From an uncultured Nitrososphaerales archaeon (GTDB taxonomy: Archaea; Thermoproteota; Nitrososphaeria; Nitrososphaerales; Gagatemarchaeaceae): a stretch of 64,000 nucleotides of DNA. Under the pieces are notes generated by a model. It saw only the letters and a list, made by a program, of their open reading frames with translations, searched no databases and was not told where the DNA came from. This document shows, piece by piece, positions 35,074 to 43,723 of this stretch. Each line of letters begins with the position of its first letter. Positions within the stretch are counted from its first letter, which is position 1. The position numbers were made by a program, and so were the translations under genes. The stretch lies in contig OY970160.1 in NCBI GenBank assembly GCA_963706445.1, positions 480,001-544,000 of the forward strand. Direction: 5' to 3'.

Positions 35074-36450
35074 TCAGGTCCCGTGACTGACTATTGCAAA
35101 GTCGAGTGCCTCCCCGAACTTTTCCAAAGTTTTCTGGACATCAATCTCCGAATGGGAAAGGGAAAGGCAGTACCTGTTCTCTGGTTTGAGGTACACGCCC
35201 TCAGAAATCAACGCTAGGTCGATGAACCTCCTGAGCCTTAGGTCAGATTCTCTGACGTCGCGGTAGTTCCTGACTCTCCTTTCAGTCAGGTAGAAGTTGA
35301 ACATCGCCCCCTCTCCCGCCATATCGTGGCGCAGGCCCCTGCTCTTGAGCTCCTTGGAGATTCCACGCTTGAGGGTCTGTGTCCTGGAAAGGAGCACATC
35401 GAACCTTCTTGGCTTCATTATCTCCTCAACTGTGGCCTTCCCCGCCGCGACTGAGAGGGGGTTGCCGTTGAACGTCCCCGAATGAAAGACCCTCCGACCC
35501 TCAGCCTCCCTCGGGTCAAGCTGGGCCATGATTTCGGTGTCCCCCACTACCGCCCCGATGGGCAGACCTCCACCCATTATCTTCCCAAGGCATGCAAGGT
35601 CGGGGACAATCGAATAGTACTCCGAGGCTCCCCCCGGCCTTACCCTGAAGCCGGTCTTTACTTCGTCAAAAACCAGGGGGATCCGAAAGTCCTTTGTTAG
35701 CGTTCGAAGGTTTTTCATGAAGGAGCGGTCCCCCGCAATGACTCCCTCCTCGAATGGCTCCAGAATGACGCATGCCAGTTCCTTTGAACGGCCCGAGATC
35801 AGCCTCTCCGTCGACTCCCAGTCGTTGAACGGCAAGACGAGAGATTCCCCGAGCATCCCATGATCGACGTCGGCGCTGTCCCCTATCGGGACTGGAGAGG
35901 TCGCCTTCCCTGCCTTGACGACGGACGGGGTGTAGCTGAAAAGTAGTGTGTCGACAGCTCCATGATAGTGGCCTTCGAATTTCGCGACCATCCGTCGGCC
36001 GGTGAAAGCCTTGGCGAGCCTGACCGCGAGAAGGGTCGCCTCCAGGCCTGAATTGGTGAACCTGATAGCCCCTCCGGGGTGGTACATGTCTCGAATTGTC
36101 CTGCCAAACTCGATCTCGGCTCCCGTGGGAGTGCCGGTAACCGTTGTCCCCGTCGAGTCCAGGACTGCCTCGATGGCGGCCCTCACCACTCGAGAACCAT
36201 GCCCAAGGATCAGCGCACCGTAGCTCATCAGGTAGTCGATGTACTCGTTCTTGTCGACGTCCCAGATGTGCGAACCACTTGTGCGCTTCATGAAGACCGG
36301 ATAGGGGTCGAAGTACTTGATTCCTGCCATGACGCCCCCGGGGGTTACTCTTTCCGCAGTCCGGAACATCTTCGCCGAGGTCCGCGTCTTCGCCCTGAAC
36401 CGCTCGATGACGGTTTTTTCATCGATCTGGGACAATTGCGTGTCCTTCAC
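35074..36450 (-). CDS. Class III aminotransferase (glutamate-1-semialdehyde aminomutase-like)
   Basis: NSGLEAT, KFEGHYHG, FDEVKTGFR, LGKIMGGGLP and HSGTFNGNP motifs. Confidence 0.88.
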   Translation of the reverse strand: MKDTQLSQIDEKTVIERFRAKTRTSAKMFRTAERVTPGGVMAGIKYFDPYPVFMKRTSGSHIWDVDKNEYIDYLMSYGALILGHGSRVVRAAIEAVLDSTGTTVTGTPTGAEIEFGRTIRDMYHPGGAIRFTNSGLEATLLAVRLAKAFTGRRMVAKFEGHYHGAVDTLLFSYTPSVVKAGKATSPVPIGDSADVDHGMLGESLVLPFNDWESTERLISGRSKELACVILEPFEEGVIAGDRSFMKNLRTLTKDFRIPLVFDEVKTGFRVRPGGASEYYSIVPDLACLGKIMGGGLPIGAVVGDTEIMAQLDPREAEGRRVFHSGTFNGNPLSVAAGKATVEEIMKPRRFDVLLSRTQTLKRGISKELKSRGLRHDMAGEGAMFNFYLTERRVRNYRDVRESDLRLRRFIDLALISEGVYLKPENRYCLSLSHSEIDVQKTLEKFGEALDFAIVSHGT

Positions 36451-36590: not shown

Positions 36591-37280
36591 ATGCAGAGGA
36601 ACAAGGCTGCTGTCCGAGTGGCCGTTATCCTTGTCATCTTCATACTAATTGCCGCCGCCGGAATAGCCATCGGGTACGGTTTCGGCACGACCGTCCAGAT
36701 TTCAGCCCAGGGGACTACGGTGACCACGACAGCCTCGGGCTCGAACTCGTCCGCGCCCTATGTCCTGACCCTTGTGATATCAACCGGCAACTATTACAAC
36801 TCGACATTCGGGGACCAGCCTGCCTACTATGTGCTGGGTCCCAACGGTTTGCAGTCCTCGGCGCAGATCGTCATACCGGCCAACAGACAGATTGAGCTCG
36901 TAATCGTCAACTACGACGATGGCTTGGCCAATCTCACGAGCTCCCAGTTAGCGAACGTGGCGGGGACGGTCAACGACCAGATGACACTCGTAAACAACTC
37001 CCAGATCAATTCCACGATGGCTTCTTCAGGGATACAGCTGCGTGGAGGAGAGACCGTCGGGAGCCTGCCCGTCTCTGAGATCTCGCACACGTTTACAATC
37101 CCGTCTCTTGGCATAAACGTCCCAGTCGGGACCTCTTCGACTGAAGTGGTCTACTTCACAGTCAAGTCCTCAGGCACCTATGCCTGGTTCTGCATGACCG
37201 CTTGCGGGGGAGGGGCCACGGGGTTAGGCGGAGCCATGGCGACCCCCGGGTGGATGGCTGGCTCCCTCGTGGTCCTGTAG
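36591..37280 (+). CDS. Membrane-anchored cupredoxin (COX2/sulfocyanin-like) with CuA-like motif
   Basis: N-terminal TM and S/T linker; HTFTIP..GINVP...G.Y.W.CMTACG...M...GWMAG. Confidence 0.75.
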   Translation: MQRNKAAVRVAVILVIFILIAAAGIAIGYGFGTTVQISAQGTTVTTTASGSNSSAPYVLTLVISTGNYYNSTFGDQPAYYVLGPNGLQSSAQIVIPANRQIELVIVNYDDGLANLTSSQLANVAGTVNDQMTLVNNSQINSTMASSGIQLRGGETVGSLPVSEISHTFTIPSLGINVPVGTSSTEVVYFTVKSSGTYAWFCMTACGGGATGLGGAMATPGWMAGSLVVL

Positions 37281-37387
37281 ACAAGAGAGTTCAGTCAGAT
37301 GAACTGGCAGGCGATACTGCTGGGGGCTATTCTCACTTTTGAGAACCGTACGAGGCACTTATATCTCGAATTCCGGGAGAAATTAGG

Positions 37388-38698
37388 GTGCCGAGTTTCC
37401 GCCAGGCCCTAACAGGTGGGGCAGTCATCACGATCCTTCTCCTGATGGTCGCGGCGCCGCCAGTGGCAGCTCAGGCCCAGCACGTCCAAGCAACCCCAGG
37501 GTACATCAACCTTGGAATGAGCACGTTCATCCTAGTGACCGCTCCGGCCGCGGGCTCCTACTCGGTCGTAGTTCAACAGCCCAACGGGACGGAATCAACC
37601 CTCAGCTTCAACCCCACGTCATCGGGACAGGTGCTGAACGCCACCTACGGGAACTTGACCGAGGGATTCAAAGCCCTGGTCGACCAGGCTGGAACTTACA
37701 ACGTCTTCCTTGAGCAGGGGAGCCAGGTAGTCTCCTCCACATCATTCTACGCGACCAACCAACTCCGGATATCAATCGAAGTGGTCATTGCCGGGACGTG
37801 CGACTACGTGTCGGGAGTGACGAGAGGGTCAAGGGAAATTTCTCACATCTTCATCGCCTATGCTTCGAATGACGCCCCGTGGAACAACACCGCGAAGGGC
37901 GCATCCGTTTACGGTCTCCTGCCCAGCGGCCAATGGACAGCCGCCACCTGGGACCCTTACTCCGTTGCGTGGCACATTGGGATTTATCCGAATTGGAACT
38001 ACACCTTCGTCGGGCCTTGGAACCCTGTCATCAACGCTAGCGACGCCGCCGGGAACACGGGGACCCTCAAGTACACTGGGAGCCCATTCACCATCAGCCC
38101 CGTCGAACTGGGCACTAGCATAACAGTTGTGAACGCAACCTCGGGTCTGGCGGTCACGAACCTCGTGAACGGTCAGACAGTTACGATCCAGGCCACCATC
38201 GCTTATCCGACCAATGTAGAGCCCGTCAGCGGTTTCGTTGCCCCTCTTAGTCCCACCCGTGGCGGTTCCGTTTCGACTCAGGTTGGGTGGGGTTACTACA
38301 ACACGACCTCGGGGACTTTCGGAGGGACAAAGCTGCCTGGTGCCCTACTCGGGACAGTCCCGATGGCATACTCGGGCAACAGCACCATCGGGGCATGGAC
38401 TGGGCAGTTCGTGTCGAGCTCTCTTCCCAAACTGCAGCCGGGATACGCCTACGAGGTAGTAGTCACGTCCAAGGACGGCGCGTCGCCCGCAAACACAGGG
38501 TTCGGGATGGAAATCCTCTCCCCCGCTTCCTCGACGGTGACCACAATCTCGACCACCGCCACACAAACTGCCACAACTACCGCCACACAAACGTCCACGC
38601 AGACGGTGCAAGCGATTCCTGATGCCGTCTATGCCGCCTTGGCAATTCTGCTGATAGTCGGCGTGCTCATAGGCTATATCGTCAGGGTTCCGAGGTAG
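37388..38698 (+). CDS. Secreted beta-rich surface protein with Thr-rich stalk and C-terminal TM anchor
   Basis: Signal peptide, many N-x-S/T sequons, TTATQTATT linker, IPD-TM-R tail. Confidence 0.8.
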   Translation: MPSFRQALTGGAVITILLLMVAAPPVAAQAQHVQATPGYINLGMSTFILVTAPAAGSYSVVVQQPNGTESTLSFNPTSSGQVLNATYGNLTEGFKALVDQAGTYNVFLEQGSQVVSSTSFYATNQLRISIEVVIAGTCDYVSGVTRGSREISHIFIAYASNDAPWNNTAKGASVYGLLPSGQWTAATWDPYSVAWHIGIYPNWNYTFVGPWNPVINASDAAGNTGTLKYTGSPFTISPVELGTSITVVNATSGLAVTNLVNGQTVTIQATIAYPTNVEPVSGFVAPLSPTRGGSVSTQVGWGYYNTTSGTFGGTKLPGALLGTVPMAYSGNSTIGAWTGQFVSSSLPKLQPGYAYEVVVTSKDGASPANTGFGMEILSPASSTVTTISTTATQTATTTATQTSTQTVQAIPDAVYAALAILLIVGVLIGYIVRVPR

Positions 38699-38702
38699 TC
38701 CG

Positions 38703-40496
38703 ATGAAGAGTGTCGGCATTGCCATAGCGGCCTCGCTCATCTTAGTTTTCCTCTTGCCGGCTGCGAACACCGCAGTCGCTGCGACCGCCCCTTCCATCAC
38801 CGTATTGCCTCCCAGGGCAGTAGTTGGCAGCAGCCTTTCGGTCAATGGACAAGGATATCCGCCCAACACTAATCTAACTCTGGAGTGGGGTACAACTGAC
38901 GCCAGCTGGATTGTAACCGGGAACCCTCCCAGGGTCACTGGAGTCAACGCGACGCCGATTGAGACCACACTCGGGCACGTAGAGACTGACTCTGCCGGCT
39001 CCTTCTCGTTTGATATGACCGTCCCCAGTGATTACCAAGGCCAACATGTCATCCAGGCTCTTTTTGCCAACGGTACCGTTGTCTCCGCAAGAGGCCTTTT
39101 CATTGTGGAACCGTCCTTCAGCATTTCGCCTTCTGGCGGGCCTGATGGCACTCCAATCACCGTAACCGCGACCGGACTGGGGTACGGGCTCTATGGGACG
39201 TACTTCTTCCTATACTGGGATAACGTCCAGGTCGGCTATTTCAGCGCCCTCACGTCACACGGGTCGACAAGTTTCACATTCTACGCATCAGGGACGCCCG
39301 GAACTCACTACATCGAAATCTATGAAGGGTACCCCGGACCGGGCTACCTGAACCCTTGGAATTCCGCGCCCGGCGTCAGCACGGGGTCTCTCTTCCCTCC
39401 ATACATACCATTCCATGCAGAGTTCAACATGACAGGTAGCCAGTCTTCGACATCAACGTCATTCACAATCCCTGCAGTGGTGGTCCTCGCAGCAGCTCTG
39501 ACTTCCATTGGGCTGTTCCTTTCCGTCGCCAAGACCGAACCCGAGAAACGAGGAAAGCTCGCGAGGATGTTGGCTGCCGTCGTGATCATCATCGCGATTG
39601 TCGCCGCAGGTGCGGGGGCATACCTGGCCCTCGCTCCCTCCTCCAATGGCGCCACGTCCGGTTTCACCCCTAAGGCCACGGTCGTCAGACCCGCAATTAC
39701 GGTGCCCCAGAGCACGGCGACGACGGGGCCAAGGATTTCAGTCTCCCCAGACATAGCCAGCGTCGGCCAGAATATTACCGTGAACGGCGCGGGCTTCGAA
39801 CCAGGTTCACAGGTTCCGCTTTCGTTTTCCGACAGGGTAGGGGACAACATTCTGGGCTTCAAGTTGGTCAACTCGCCCTTGAAGAATGTGACCGCTGGCT
39901 CCGACGGGACGTTCTCCTTCACCATGGATACACCTGTGACCCTCGGAGGCATTCACTACATCTCGGCAGCCAACATGACCCGGAATTCTAACGGGACACT
40001 TTTCGTCCAAAGGACCGCCACCATCAACGCCACTGAGGGCCCCGCTGGGACCACCGTCGCTGTCGTGCTGCAAGGCGTCGGATGGACCTTCAACACGAAC
40101 ATCGCGGCCCTCGACTACGACAACTCGTACATAGGCTACGGCTGCGGGTTCTTCAGCAACGGCAACGTGACCTTCGATCTTACTGTCACGGGGGCCCCTG
40201 GCATACACACCATAGACGTCTACCCTTCAGTGTGGTGGGGCCCATCCACGCAGACAAACCAGTTGTCGATCGAGTACCGATATGCGCTGCTCACCCCACA
40301 AGACCACCCTGAATTGATGCCATCATTCCACTTCACCTTCCTGATTACCGCCTCCGGCCAGCAGTCACAGTCGAGCGGAGCCATCATGCCTTCAGCCTCC
40401 TTCCTGGGTTTGATGGGCGTGACCGTGTGTGGCGTGTTCTTCCCATGCTTCCCCGCTCCAGTCGGTCCGACCCGCGGCGAGGCTCGGAAAAGATAA
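38703..40496 (+). CDS. Surface protein with duplicated Ig/IPT-like modules separated by a TM hairpin
   Basis: Two homologous halves (V.G.G[YF].P...D.G.FSF...P....G.H.I; GP.GT...G.G....DN...GY...G.PG.H.I..Y). Confidence 0.8.
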   Translation: MKSVGIAIAASLILVFLLPAANTAVAATAPSITVLPPRAVVGSSLSVNGQGYPPNTNLTLEWGTTDASWIVTGNPPRVTGVNATPIETTLGHVETDSAGSFSFDMTVPSDYQGQHVIQALFANGTVVSARGLFIVEPSFSISPSGGPDGTPITVTATGLGYGLYGTYFFLYWDNVQVGYFSALTSHGSTSFTFYASGTPGTHYIEIYEGYPGPGYLNPWNSAPGVSTGSLFPPYIPFHAEFNMTGSQSSTSTSFTIPAVVVLAAALTSIGLFLSVAKTEPEKRGKLARMLAAVVIIIAIVAAGAGAYLALAPSSNGATSGFTPKATVVRPAITVPQSTATTGPRISVSPDIASVGQNITVNGAGFEPGSQVPLSFSDRVGDNILGFKLVNSPLKNVTAGSDGTFSFTMDTPVTLGGIHYISAANMTRNSNGTLFVQRTATINATEGPAGTTVAVVLQGVGWTFNTNIAALDYDNSYIGYGCGFFSNGNVTFDLTVTGAPGIHTIDVYPSVWWGPSTQTNQLSIEYRYALLTPQDHPELMPSFHFTFLITASGQQSQSSGAIMPSASFLGLMGVTVCGVFFPCFPAPVGPTRGEARKR

Positions 40497-41278
40497 TGCC
40501 CCCGAACCCGGATGACAAGCCCGAAGGGTCGGAGCACGGTCCCGCATCCAGCGCGGACGACGGAAAAACTGCTGCGAAGGACAGCGCCTCGCGCAGACGC
40601 TTCATGAAGCTCTCCTTGGCCGCAGGGTTGGTGCTAGCAATAGCAGGAGTCGCCTCCGTCGCCCAGTCGCTCTTCAGCCCGATTTCTCCAGAACCCGGTC
40701 CCCCTCCGCCAAGTACCGAGACCGTCACGTCGACGGTCACCGTGGGGGCGACAGGATCCGCTAGCACAACGAACACGTCAACCTCGTCGACTTCCACGGC
40801 CGCGTCTCCCTTCCCCCGGGTGAAGGTTGCCAACGCGAGTGACCTCGCAGGGGGCCAGACTGTCACCTTCAACTATCCGTTGGACAACACGCCGAACCTC
40901 GTGGCGAAGCTGGGGCAAAAGGCCGCGGGGGGCGTCGGCCCGGACGGTGACATCGTCGCCTTCAGCCAAGTGTGTCAGCACCTAGGTTGCATTTGGGGGT
41001 ACGTCCCCACCAGCGGCTCGCCGAAGTGCGACAGTAGTTACAAGGCGGCGAGTCCGGTCGGCTTCTGCTGCTGCCACGGGAGCGTCTACGACCTGACAGC
41101 CGCCGCCGCAGTCATCGATGGCCCTTCTCCGAGGCCACAACCGCAAGTAATCCTAGAGTATGACAGTTCGACCGGGGACATTTATGCGACGGGGATGGGT
41201 CCGCCCACCATATTCGGCCACAACACGGGGAGCGAAAATGTTCTGGACGACCTGCAGGGCGGCAACGTGGTAAGCTAG
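40496..41278 (+). CDS. Tat-exported Rieske 2Fe-2S protein (SoxL/SoxF-type)
   Basis: SRRRFMK Tat motif, GVGPDGDIVAFS, CQHLGC, CCCHGSVYD and GPSPRP; TAATG overlap with the upstream gene. Confidence 0.93.
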   Translation: MPPNPDDKPEGSEHGPASSADDGKTAAKDSASRRRFMKLSLAAGLVLAIAGVASVAQSLFSPISPEPGPPPPSTETVTSTVTVGATGSASTTNTSTSSTSTAASPFPRVKVANASDLAGGQTVTFNYPLDNTPNLVAKLGQKAAGGVGPDGDIVAFSQVCQHLGCIWGYVPTSGSPKCDSSYKAASPVGFCCCHGSVYDLTAAAAVIDGPSPRPQPQVILEYDSSTGDIYATGMGPPTIFGHNTGSENVLDDLQGGNVVS

Positions 41279-41281
41279 AAG

Positions 41282-42844
41282 ATGTCCGACAACGCAGCTG
41301 AGGGCAACATGGATGAAGGAGAAACAAGGCATGATGGAAGCGGCTTCGTCGACAGGGTAATGGGGTGGTTCGACTCCAGGCTGGGGCTATCGCACCAGAT
41401 GCTGCGGCCCGCGCCCCAGTACTCCATCAACCCATTCTACTGGCTGGGGGCCCTCGCGACAGTTGCTTTCGTCATCCAGGGAGTCACAGGGGGGATAATG
41501 ATGCTGTACTATGTACCAAACCCGACCCAGGCCTATGCGACCACCCAGTATATCTTCCAAGTCGTGAGCTACGGCACATTCCTCGAAACTATCCACCTCT
41601 ACACTGCCTACGCCATGATTATGCTCGCGTTCATGCACCTGATGCGAGGCTACTTCGTTTCCGTCCACAAGAGGCCCCGGGAGCTGATGTGGGTCACGGG
41701 GATGGTGATGGGTTTCGTCACCCTGGGCTTCGGGTTCACCGGCTACCTCCTCCCATGGACCATCGTGTCGAAGTCTGCGACTGACGTGGGTATAGGAATG
41801 ATGGGCGCACTCCCTCAGCCGTTGGCGAACTGGCTGACCTTCTTGGTTGTGGGGTCGGGGAGCGACGCGGGAGAACTCCTCAGGTTCTACGACCTGCATG
41901 TCGTCGTACTCCCTGCGGTCCTTCTTGTGCTCTTGGTGGTGAAGATGTACATGCTCGAGGCCCATGGTGTCTCAGAACCGACCACGGGGATGGATTCGCT
42001 CCCGCCGAAAAAGAAGAAGCTCATCCCGATCTTCCCCGACGTTTCGTTCTACCTGGTGGAGCTTGCTGCCCTCTTCGGGTCGGCGGTAATCATCGTCTCT
42101 GTGATCTTCCCTCTCTCCCTCCCGCCTGAATATTCGGCATCTTTGGCGGGGCAGTACGTTGCTCAGCCCGACTGGTACTTCCTTTGGGTGTACCAGATCC
42201 TGAAGATTTCAGCGTTCGAAGAAGCGGGACTGGCAGTCGCCCTATCGGTCGTGACTCTCATCTTCATCGTACTGGTGCTCCTGCCATTCATTGACAGGGG
42301 GAAGATCAGGAACATCCGAGAAAGGATGGTGTACATGACCCTCGGCGCGATATTTGTGGCCGAGGTCGCGGTCCTTGCCGTTTGGGGATACCTGACCCCC
42401 GGGCAGGTAATACCTGATGAAACGGCTGTGCTTGTTCTTGGGGGGACCGCGCTCCTTGTCACCCTAGGGTCGGTCGTGGCCTACAAGGCGGTGTTCGGAG
42501 GGCTGAACGTATACTTGAAGGGCCGGGCGAAGAGCACGGCAACTGCCGCGGAGGCGCCGTCCCTGGTGGCGCCAAGAAAAGTATCATCGCGATCAGCGGC
42601 AGTCTGGACCTCAGTGCTCTTCGTCTGCTTCCTGGTTGCTGGTGCCTTCTTTATCGGACTTTCGGTAAACGGAGTGATTGCCCTAAGGCTTGGGGCCACT
42701 GGCGCCATCCAGTCTCTCGCTGTCTCGCTCGCGGGGTTATCGCTCATCGTCGTCGGCACTATGTTCTTTCTCTACAGGCTAGACCTGGGGACTGGCTCAA
42801 TAAAGAGAAGGATACGAGCCTTCGAGCTCGGGTGGCGGGAATGA
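41282..42844 (+). CDS. Cytochrome b of a Rieske/cyt b complex (SoxN/SoxC-like) with extra C-terminal helices
   Basis: Helix B H..H pair, PRELMW.TG, GFTGYLLPW, RFYDLH and PDWY Qo motif. Confidence 0.93.
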   Translation: MSDNAAEGNMDEGETRHDGSGFVDRVMGWFDSRLGLSHQMLRPAPQYSINPFYWLGALATVAFVIQGVTGGIMMLYYVPNPTQAYATTQYIFQVVSYGTFLETIHLYTAYAMIMLAFMHLMRGYFVSVHKRPRELMWVTGMVMGFVTLGFGFTGYLLPWTIVSKSATDVGIGMMGALPQPLANWLTFLVVGSGSDAGELLRFYDLHVVVLPAVLLVLLVVKMYMLEAHGVSEPTTGMDSLPPKKKKLIPIFPDVSFYLVELAALFGSAVIIVSVIFPLSLPPEYSASLAGQYVAQPDWYFLWVYQILKISAFEEAGLAVALSVVTLIFIVLVLLPFIDRGKIRNIRERMVYMTLGAIFVAEVAVLAVWGYLTPGQVIPDETAVLVLGGTALLVTLGSVVAYKAVFGGLNVYLKGRAKSTATAAEAPSLVAPRKVSSRSAAVWTSVLFVCFLVAGAFFIGLSVNGVIALRLGATGAIQSLAVSLAGLSLIVVGTMFFLYRLDLGTGSIKRRIRAFELGWRE

Positions 42845-43152
42845 TCGCCGACCAGTCCGTCTCAGGCGAGAATAACGCAGTTACCGAAGGGATGGGCCTC
42901 AGGATAGCCGCTCTCTTGGTGATTGTCGCTGCCCTTTCTGTTTTCGTACTTTGGTCAGTGAACCCGGTGGGTTCAGGAAGTGAGGCGACCTACGCCCTGT
43001 ATCTGGCTGTGGACCTGGTCGCCGTGGCGATGATCTCCTACGTCCAGAGAGCGATTGCCCGCGGGGGACGAATGGCAAGGGTGCCCCTGGTGGCCGGGTG
43101 CATATTCATTGTCGTCCTCGTGGTCGCCGGTCTTTACCTCCAGAGCGCATAG
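42841..43152 (+). CDS. Small three-TM membrane protein, last gene of the Rieske/cyt b operon
   Basis: ATGA overlap with cyt b; hydrophobic. Confidence 0.7.
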   Translation: MIADQSVSGENNAVTEGMGLRIAALLVIVAALSVFVLWSVNPVGSGSEATYALYLAVDLVAVAMISYVQRAIARGGRMARVPLVAGCIFIVVLVVAGLYLQSA

Positions 43153-43201
43153 CGAAACAAGTAGATTGCTAGCCGCTCGGACTGATTGAAGGAGCTTCTG
43201 A

Positions 43202-43723
43202 TCACTTTTCGGCCGTGTACCCACCTACGGCGCCGAAGATTCCGCCGGCGATTCCCAGGACCGCCGCCCCGAAGGGTCCAAAGAACGCGCCGATGACTAC
43301 GCCCAGGACGGTCCCCACTGCGAACTCTCTCATCTCTCTGCGGGCCCAGTTCTGGACAACGACGACCCCCGTAAGGGCGTAATTCGTCAGATAGAGCCCG
43401 ACGTATGTGGGGGTTATCGCGTTGATCACGATCAGGTCGAGGTACCAAAGATATCCTGTGAAAATGTTCCCTATTGTCAGCAGGATTAGCAGCCACCTCG
43501 GCAGGCCTGTTCTACCCAAATGAGTAATCTTGAGCCCTACGACTAGGATGAGCGGAAACCAAACGATCCCGAAGGCCCAATAGGGGACCCCCATCAGCGC
43601 GGAATAGACGGTGAACTTCACCGCGAACCAGTTTGTGGTGAACGCGTTCTCCTGCCAAGCATGGTAGAAGGCCTCGGCCACGCCGACCACCGAGAGCAGT
43701 ATGAAGGTGAGGGACGCCCTCAT
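43202..43723 (-). CDS. VKOR-fold membrane protein lacking all cysteines
   Basis: YS.LMGVP...G..WF and YLWYL.L.VINA-ITPTY, where VKORs have CxxC; zero Cys residues. Confidence 0.6.
   Translation of the reverse strand: MRASLTFILLSVVGVAEAFYHAWQENAFTTNWFAVKFTVYSALMGVPYWAFGIVWFPLILVVGLKITHLGRTGLPRWLLILLTIGNIFTGYLWYLDLIVINAITPTYVGLYLTNYALTGVVVVQNWARREMREFAVGTVLGVVIGAFFGPFGAAVLGIAGGIFGAVGGYTAEK

Follow-up and report, generated by a model that had tools for sequence, protein, structure and literature searches.

A two-gene surface cassette embedded in a Rieske/cytochrome b operon of a Nitrososphaerales archaeon: an undescribed genomic partner of quinol-oxidising modules

The textbook cytochrome c1/c step is missing from the respiration of many soil bacteria and of archaea related to the one studied here, and the links between their quinol oxidases and the acceptors are only partly known. 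In this work, we asked what two surface proteins contribute to a Rieske/cytochrome b operon of an uncultured Nitrososphaerales archaeon (GCA_963706445.1, contig OY970160.1). The window, which means the whole analysed stretch of 64,000 nucleotides (nt), covers positions 480001-544000 and is part of a single 1.82-Mb contig. Six genes (g1 to g6) run in one direction at 36591-43152 (+), and a seventh gene (g7) is convergent to them. The core of this operon, consisting of a copper protein, a Rieske protein and cytochrome b with no cytochrome c, is an ordinary archaeal complex III analogue that has already been described. The new part is the pair g2/g3, which is real, undescribed and consistently tied in its genomic context to quinol-oxidising modules. 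These two unannotated families form a widespread extracytoplasmic two-gene cassette, and they are very probably functional partners of the quinol-oxidising modules. The features of the locus are as follows:

36591..37280, + strand: g1, CuA-like cupredoxin, N-terminally anchored, 229 amino acids (aa)
37281..37387, + strand: g1-g2 gap of 107 nt, with a TATA-like sequence (TTATAT) some 25-30 nt upstream of the g2 start
37388..38698, + strand: g2, secreted protein with three beta-sandwich domains, a Ser/Thr-rich stalk and a C-terminal transmembrane (TM) anchor, 436 aa
38703..40496, + strand: g3, internally duplicated protein with four immunoglobulin (Ig)-like domains, 597 aa
40496..41278, + strand: g4, Rieske [2Fe-2S] protein exported by twin-arginine translocation (Tat), 260 aa from the ATG at 40496
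41282..42844, + strand: g5, long cytochrome b, SoxC-like, 520 aa
42832..43152, + strand: g6, small protein with three TM helices (TM profile), 106 aa
43202..43723, - strand: g7, VKOR-like membrane protein, Cys-free, convergent to the operon

All seven open reading frames named in a preliminary description of this DNA are present at these positions. Its tight spacing of g2 to g6 was likewise found, the junctions being 3-4 nt gaps or overlaps. The gap between g2 and g3 is 4 nt, g3 and the Rieske gene overlap by 1 nt (TAATG) with the Rieske ATG at 40496, the Rieske and cytochrome b genes are 3 nt apart, and cytochrome b overlaps g6 by 13 nt. Between g6 and the convergent g7 there are 49 nt. The Rieske start was picked to agree with the lengths of its homologues. 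The clustering goes beyond chance, because the same genes co-occur in dozens of related contigs.

The linkage of the pair in archaea was followed in 80 related loci anchored on cytochrome b. Both g2 and g3 were found in 13 of the cytochrome-b-anchored loci, always beside Rieske/cytochrome b, and in at least four gene orders: g2-g3-Rieske-cytochrome b-g6, g3-g2-Rieske-cytochrome b (L010), g2-Rieske-cytochrome b-g6-g3 (L014, L015, L016, L019, L025) and Rieske-cytochrome b-g6-g2-g3 (L024). All g2/g3-linked cytochrome b genes fall into one 21-row clade of a quick IQ-TREE tree, with a Shimodaira-Hasegawa-like approximate likelihood ratio test (SH-aLRT) value of 97; in the basal members of this clade and in its sister clade, g1 is present in place of the pair. 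A second, independent scan took g3 as its anchor and comprised 23 loci, and Rieske/cytochrome b was detected within 9 kb in 15 of them. Furthermore, the partner module can be swapped. Two loci (L107 and L110) hold g2/g3 in operons with a Tat 4Fe-4S protein (Fer4_11) and NrfD, not with Rieske/cytochrome b. The L107 operon has nine genes separated by overlaps or gaps of no more than 7 nt, in the order Tat 4Fe-4S protein, NrfD-family protein, cupredoxin-Big_1 fusion, g2, g3, long partner, g3, thioredoxin-like protein and DsbD/CcdA-type protein, and L110 reads g2-g3-Fer4-NrfD. The last two genes of the L107 operon (L107:10791-12059) encode a thioredoxin-like protein (AhpC/TSA, Redoxin) and a DsbD_TM/CcdA-type membrane protein, which suggests that cysteines on the outer face are kept reduced.

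The relatives also indicate how the pair came to stand where it does. The loci L028 and L032 read hemL(-)-g1-Rieske-cytochrome b-g6, and the window reads hemL(-)-g1-g2-g3-Rieske-cytochrome b-g6, so that g2/g3 look like an insertion into an ancestral operon. In the ancestral arrangement g1 lies directly upstream of the Rieske gene, and here g2/g3 lie between them. The hemL neighbour on the minus strand is common to L028, L032 and the window, and therefore helps to date the insertion. In the window it is a HemL-like, class-III aminotransferase-like gene at 35074-36450 (-), divergent from g1, as read from the sequence only. The TTATAT in the g1-g2 gap may be a candidate internal promoter; RNA structure in this gap was not significant (z 0.44), and a shared CACTTAT motif there was statistically not distinctive. 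The distribution of g3 is patchy, with 5 of the 401 sampled Nitrososphaeria genomes carrying it and none in the large ammonia-oxidiser families; 24 genomes sampled from the same genus all lacked it. The pair has been duplicated repeatedly. A second g3 paralogue was seen in or near the cluster at L015:5326-7122 and L098:15420-17321, with 47% and 39% identity to g3, respectively. A g2/g3 pair with only 31-39% identity was seen at L104:3487-12546, beside genes on the opposite strand that look like HdrA/B/C from their N-terminal motifs only, a hint of a thiol/disulfide connection. In a related metagenome-assembled genome (L087:1400-8004), a Fer4-NrfD-Big1-like module was observed directly 5' of Rieske/cytochrome b on the same strand, without g2/g3.

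The cassette is found in bacteria as well. Its context was surveyed in the 80 best bacterial loci, mostly from Acidobacteriota, with respiratory neighbours sought within 7 kb; the narrower alignment A5 was used for this locus scan, as the wide alignment (A4), which took in distant homologues, was too diverse. A small secreted partner gene precedes the g3-like gene in about 70 of these 80 loci. Four loci read Rieske-cytochrome b-(cytochrome c)-partner-g3-like and three read Fer4-NrfD-Big1-partner-g3-like. For example, the P0138 locus reads Rieske-cytB_N-cytB_C-partner-g3-like, and the P0148 locus reads g3-like-Fer4-NrfD. In a sample of Chloroflexota, 10 of 301 genomes carried the cassette, and 7 of 11 informative loci had the order Fer4-NrfD-Big1-partner-g3-like. 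The pair is thus tied to Rieske/cytochrome b in Nitrososphaerota, Chloroflexota and Bacillota, and to the Tat 4Fe-4S protein with NrfD in Nitrososphaerota and Chloroflexota. The association between the pair and quinol modules is recurrent and lineage-specific, not universal. The suggestion of the preliminary description that the surface proteins are dedicated partners is supported by these data, as the linkage outlasts both the shuffling of gene order and the swap to Fer4/NrfD, and recurs in Chloroflexota and Bacillota.

Neither g2 nor g3 has a Pfam or NCBIfam match above the cut-off. The AlphaFold2 (AF2) model of g2 (predicted local distance difference test score, pLDDT, 82) has three beta-sandwiches, a Ser/Thr stalk (about residues 382-409) and a C-terminal TM helix, and the protein contains 9 N-glycosylation sequons. 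In g3, residues 28-250 and 320-555 are duplicates of each other (31% identity, E 1e-20). The protein consists of a signal peptide, two Ig-like domains, a TM hairpin (about 256-310), two further Ig-like domains and a C-terminal hydrophobic tail, and its AF2 model likewise shows four beta-sandwich domains with the TM hairpin in the middle. More than 260 full-length homologues of g3 share 50-76% identity, every one annotated as "hypothetical". The g3 profile had 2455 matches in a search of 1.8 billion representatives, including many bacterial and haloarchaeal two-repeat proteins of about 500 aa. The latter g3-like proteins share W62, D173, N174, H202, Y215, H418, C481 and D534. Cys481 and one His in each Ig domain are conserved in g3, and the invariants are retained in 37%-identical paralogues and in the bacterial homologues of about 500 aa. 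The partner family is a small secreted protein with a core of about 130 aa and an invariant D...C...RG...W pattern, and its bacterial profile is matched by g2 with an hhalign probability of 99.4% (E 4.7e-21). As defined in this work, the cassette comprises a duplicated two-Ig unit with a cysteine in its last domain and an adjoining partner; g2 and g3 show both features and lie 4 nt apart. Alignments of homologues show Cys138 as the single invariant cysteine of g2. There is accordingly one invariant cysteine per family, C481 in g3 and C138 in g2/partner, kept between proteins of about 30% identity and across domains of life.

Searches for better-known relatives of the pair were negative. Among PDB sequences, no match of either the g3-like or the partner profile had an E value below 0.08, and in Pfam/NCBIfam scans the bacterial homologues and their partners had no matches beyond weak ones to TIG, neocarzinostatin or Ig-like families. 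The ESM Atlas returned only clusters called "hypothetical" or "IPT/TIG domain-containing". Fold searches with the g3 model (Foldseek against pdb) and with the g2 model gave generic multi-Ig/macroglobulin-type matches with a very large root-mean-square deviation, which do not point to a function. Prediction of a complex between g3 (28-555) and g2 (29-381) gave scores of 0.00, 0.41 and 0.00, which in a run without controls speak neither for nor against binding. An iron-sulfur cofactor in g2 or g3 was considered and ruled out, as their signal peptides are of the Sec type without a twin arginine.

The Rieske protein matches PF00355 with 26.1 bits (cut-off 20.3) and the Tat signal TIGR01409 with 17.5 bits (cut-off 16.7). 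Both cluster-binding boxes, CQHLGC and CCCHGS, are present, together with a TM anchor and a long Ser/Thr linker, and the protein has similarity to AioB and SoxL2. The cytochrome b matches Cytochrom_B_N_2 (8.8e-33) and Cytochrom_B_C (6e-12), its top NCBIfam match is SoxC of Sulfolobales, and its Qo motif PDWY lies inside QPDWYFLW and conforms to PxWY. The haem ligands H105, H119 and H206 are conserved, and the canonical four-His set is incomplete. At the fourth ligand position, Lys221 (window 41942-41944, in helix D at 41897-41968) is found in 71 of 72 members of the cytochrome b family, and His228, seven residues further on, is conserved in 68 of the 72. Since the Pfam domain matches are strong, a cytochrome b without the fourth His is a divergent member of the family. 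The Lys221 clade may have His/Lys ligation, a shifted ligand or a loss of one haem. In a published survey of cytochrome b, Pyrobaculum was the sole listed exception in the fourth-ligand His among the representatives (PMC4122944). The Rieske gene adjoins cytochrome b in 77 of the 80 cytochrome-b-anchored loci, and a g6 homologue lies directly 3' of cytochrome b in 57. The three proteins form a conserved core, in which g6 is a conserved accessory subunit.

No cytochrome c1, f or c subunit is encoded here, as none of the seven proteins contains CxxCH. The preliminary description had said the same with the exception of the Rieske ligand box; the exception falls away, because box II reads CCCH, which is CxCH. 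Its view of a module without cytochrome c was borne out also beyond the locus. The Cytochrom_C_asm family was not found in the whole genome, in a search that was positive in 11 of 14 control genomes. The cytochrome-c-free state is therefore a trait of the organism and not of the cluster.

The cupredoxin g1 matches Cupredoxin_1 of Pfam (27.1 bits), with weak matches to the C-terminal domains of COX2 and NosZ (NCBIfam CoxB/NosZ C-terminus). The site pattern is H166...C201-x3-C205...M...M, kept in about 28 homologues; H166 is the sole His, and the second CuA His is missing. The full CuA ligand set H...CxExCGxxHxxM is thus incomplete, and COX2 is matched with 18 bits, short of the cut-off of 22. 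Among solved sequences, CuA domains of COX2 come closest (E 0.003). The C-terminal loop of g1 (window 37087-37265) carries the family pattern H...C-x3-C-G...GAM...GWM, which is CuA-like minus the second His, and related loops (CxxxxCxGH and CxxxCEGM..M) were seen in the cupredoxin-Big_1 fusions of L107 and L110. An assignment as sulfocyanin (SoxE, TIGR03094) was rejected at 20.5 bits against a cut-off of 168.4. A g1 homologue lies immediately 5' of the Rieske gene in about 22-25 of the 80 cytochrome-b-anchored loci, which is the commonest arrangement and agrees with the cupredoxin neighbour pointed out in the preliminary description. In most genomes carrying g2/g3, g1 is not linked to the cluster.

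The convergent gene g7 matches VKOR (PF07884, 30.8 bits) and has no Cys, so the catalytic CxxC and the loop cysteines are missing and it cannot act as a thiol oxidoreductase. Its homologue in L035 is likewise Cys-free. A VKOR-like gene was found near cytochrome b in just 6 of the 80 loci, in varying position and strand; it was therefore not counted in the system and is probably outside it. A role as an integral part was rejected on the same low linkage.

The genome contains three Rieske/cytochrome b modules, and g1, g2, g3 and g6 occur only at the module in the window; g2/g3 are single copy. The further modules lie at G000:C1:231916-233778 (-) and G000:C1:1019456-1021251 (-). The cytochrome b of one is 56% identical, and that of the other is 27% identical, with the canonical fourth His and a plastocyanin-like match nearby. 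Two haem-copper oxidases are encoded in operons at C1:582311-585412 and C1:440503-443567. Archaeal AmoA had no match in the genome, in a search that had no positive control. The nearest cytochrome b genes are on contigs labelled Nitrososphaerota, Thaumarchaeota, Nitrososphaerales, Ca. Gagatemarchaeum or Bathyarchaeia (the latter probably mislabelled), mainly from metagenomes of soil and peat. A related family, the Gagatemarchaeaceae, has been reported to respire aerobically via A1-type oxidases (PMC10640624).

We lean slightly towards the reading that the operon encodes a cytochrome-c-free quinol-oxidising complex, with g2/g3 as an accessory module for electron output or input at the outer face. 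Quinol would be oxidised at the PDWY Qo site, and the tethered Rieske domain would pass electrons to the tethered cupredoxin at the outer face. From the cupredoxin, the electrons would reach one of the two haem-copper oxidases, whose genes lie elsewhere in the genome. The products of g2 and g3 would probably form a heterodimer, perhaps joined or made redox-active via the two lone cysteines, and this heterodimer would serve as the outer-face accessory output or input for this one complex. The role specific to one complex is suggested by the presence of the pair at one of the three Rieske/cytochrome b modules in the genome. The pair adjoins quinol-oxidising modules also in bacteria and in further archaea, and this makes it a good candidate for a respiratory component that has gone unrecognised. 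We tentatively advance a narrower form of this proposal, which we consider possible rather than likely. Here, g2/g3 would be an Ig-only redox module with a metal or thiol/disulfide centre made from the two invariant cysteines, with or without His, and would act as the terminal output or input of Rieske/cytochrome b or NrfCD towards a substrate beyond the membrane, in a respiratory branch common to soil Nitrososphaerota and Chloroflexota. Outward electron transfer or an extracellular substrate for g2/g3, as such, is speculation with gene location as its sole basis.

Several observations weigh against an electron-transferring role of the pair. Respiratory neighbours were lacking in 73 of the 80 best bacterial loci. 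Five archaeal loci (L097, L100, L106, L109, L111) hold g3 copies or fragments only, also without respiratory neighbours, and of the five, at least L097, L100 and L106 represent second copies, their genomes having the full cluster as well. The preliminary description had held that Ig-like genes standing without respiratory neighbours would speak against its view, and such genes do occur in part, as paralogues and in the bacterial loci just mentioned. Moreover, the bacterial Rieske/cytochrome b loci L143 and L173 encode a monohaem cytochrome c (CxxCH open reading frames, with a c6-like match in L173), so the pair is not a simple replacement of cytochrome c. No haem, copper or flavin motif was found in g2/g3, and the alignments show no invariant His or Met in g2. 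The conserved His residues of g3 occupy equivalent positions in all four Ig domains and may therefore be structural. Finally, the Sec-type signals mean that no pre-assembled cofactor is expected, and any cofactor would be acquired outside the cell.

These points leave room for other explanations. The one that survives best, although we regard it as unlikely, is that g2/g3 are structural or assembly accessories, that is, a glycosylated Ig scaffold which tethers, shields or positions the outer-face domains under the surface layer (S-layer) or cell wall, with the cysteines forming a stabilising intermolecular disulfide only. It would account for two all-beta-sandwich proteins with stalks and TM anchors, generic multi-Ig fold matches and no cofactor motif. 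The Asp/Asn-rich invariant positions resemble those of extracellular Ig domains, and the pair is solitary in most Acidobacteriota loci. However, a scaffold is not expected to pair repeatedly and specifically with two unrelated types of quinol-oxidising module in Archaea and Bacteria alike, nor to be missing from the other two Rieske/cytochrome b modules of this genome, and it fits poorly with one Cys per protein being conserved at only about 30% identity.

Distinctly less probable is a role in the extracytoplasmic maturation of outer-face redox centres, with the pair acting as a metal chaperone or as a thiol-redox system, for example in copper loading of the CxxxC site of the cupredoxin. The archaeal clusters are nearly always accompanied by a CuA-like or plastocyanin-type copper protein, namely g1 here, the cupredoxin-Big1 fusions in L107 and L110, and blue copper proteins in L015, L019, L022 and L024. 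Lone cysteines are typical of metal hand-over sites, and the thioredoxin-like and DsbD/CcdA-type proteins at the end of L107 would suit such a function. On the other hand, the Fer4-NrfD-Big1-partner-g3-like clusters of Chloroflexota show no cupredoxin domain, the bacterial Rieske/cytochrome b loci encode cytochrome c or lack a carrier, and the family and structure searches gave no similarity to Sco, PCuAC or CopC. Least probable of all is an incidental adjacency, in which a mobile adhesin-like surface cassette landed in the operon with no functional tie to respiration: the patchy occurrence (5 of 401 Nitrososphaeria genomes, none of the 24 of the same genus), the solitary copies and the many bacterial copies without respiratory neighbours fit it, but operon gaps of no more than 4 nt or overlaps, a linkage persisting through at least four rearrangements and the independent recruitment to NrfCD operons in Archaea and Chloroflexota do not.

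The proposal of an accessory electron module keeps our preference, and its consequences differ from those of the alternatives. For the two families, the only consistent genomic association found is with quinol-oxidising modules, of two different kinds and in both Archaea and Bacteria. Should the pair be a redox module, it would add a new component to respiration in Chloroflexota and in abundant archaea of acid soils. As a scaffold or a maturation factor, it would still mark a specialised sub-type of Rieske/cytochrome b and NrfCD complexes. Either way, the pair is a concrete, clonable target for biochemistry.

Compared with known systems, g1 is closest to the CuA domain of COX2 and NosZ. The alignment to their CuA loop region shows the first His, the CysxxxCys and a Met retained in g1, but g1 is a stand-alone protein without the second His and, in this copy, the Glu, and has a Gly-rich insert with a second Met, a pattern found family-wide. 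Known NrfC/NrfD modules (PsrBC, ActBC, DsrOP-like) pass electrons to a molybdopterin or multihaem catalytic subunit. In L107, L110 and Chloroflexota, the pair is encoded with the Tat 4Fe-4S protein and NrfD, and NrfCD there holds the place that Rieske/cytochrome b has in the window, which itself lacks NrfCD. Unlike the known modules, the g2/g3-type clusters encode no molybdopterin or multihaem subunit; a TM-anchored Big_1 protein, the partner and the g3-like protein are encoded instead. The SoxLN-CbsAB-OdsN system of Sulfolobales (PMC5461723) likewise combines SoxL, an archaeal Rieske protein, with the cytochrome b SoxN and lacks cytochrome c1. With its glycosylated anchored ecto-protein CbsA, accessory membrane protein CbsB and small subunit, it is analogous in gene count and layout to g2, g3, Rieske, cytochrome b and g6. 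However, CbsA is a haem b protein, and g2 has no invariant His or Met; g3 consists mainly of extracellular Ig-like domains and is not a hydrophobic protein. Homology of g2/g3 to CbsA/CbsB was ruled out, as neither CbsA (TIGR03154) nor CbsB (TIGR03155) was found in the whole genome at E <= 1, both being above the cut-off in Sulfolobus acidocaldarius. The operon also resembles the complex III-like locus of Nitrososphaerales and Ca. Angelarchaeales, for which a blue copper protein 5' of Rieske/cytochrome b in place of cytochrome c has been published (PMC9038741). This locus shares with the window the order copper protein, Rieske, cytochrome b without cytochrome c, the tethering of the copper protein, a haem-copper oxidase encoded elsewhere and the host phylum. 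It differs in that g1 is CuA/COX2-like (H...CxxxC...M...M) and not plastocyanin-like, in that the cytochrome b of the window belongs to a clade with Lys at the fourth haem-ligand position, and in that the operon in the window holds the extra surface proteins g2 and g3. The preliminary description had called the architecture undescribed and had named a gene-for-gene mapping onto a characterised complex as the result that would overturn this. The cluster is not gene-for-gene equal to such a complex. For the copper/Rieske/cytochrome b core, the claim of an undescribed complex does not stand, as that core had already been published (PMC9038741); for the embedded g2/g3 pair it does.

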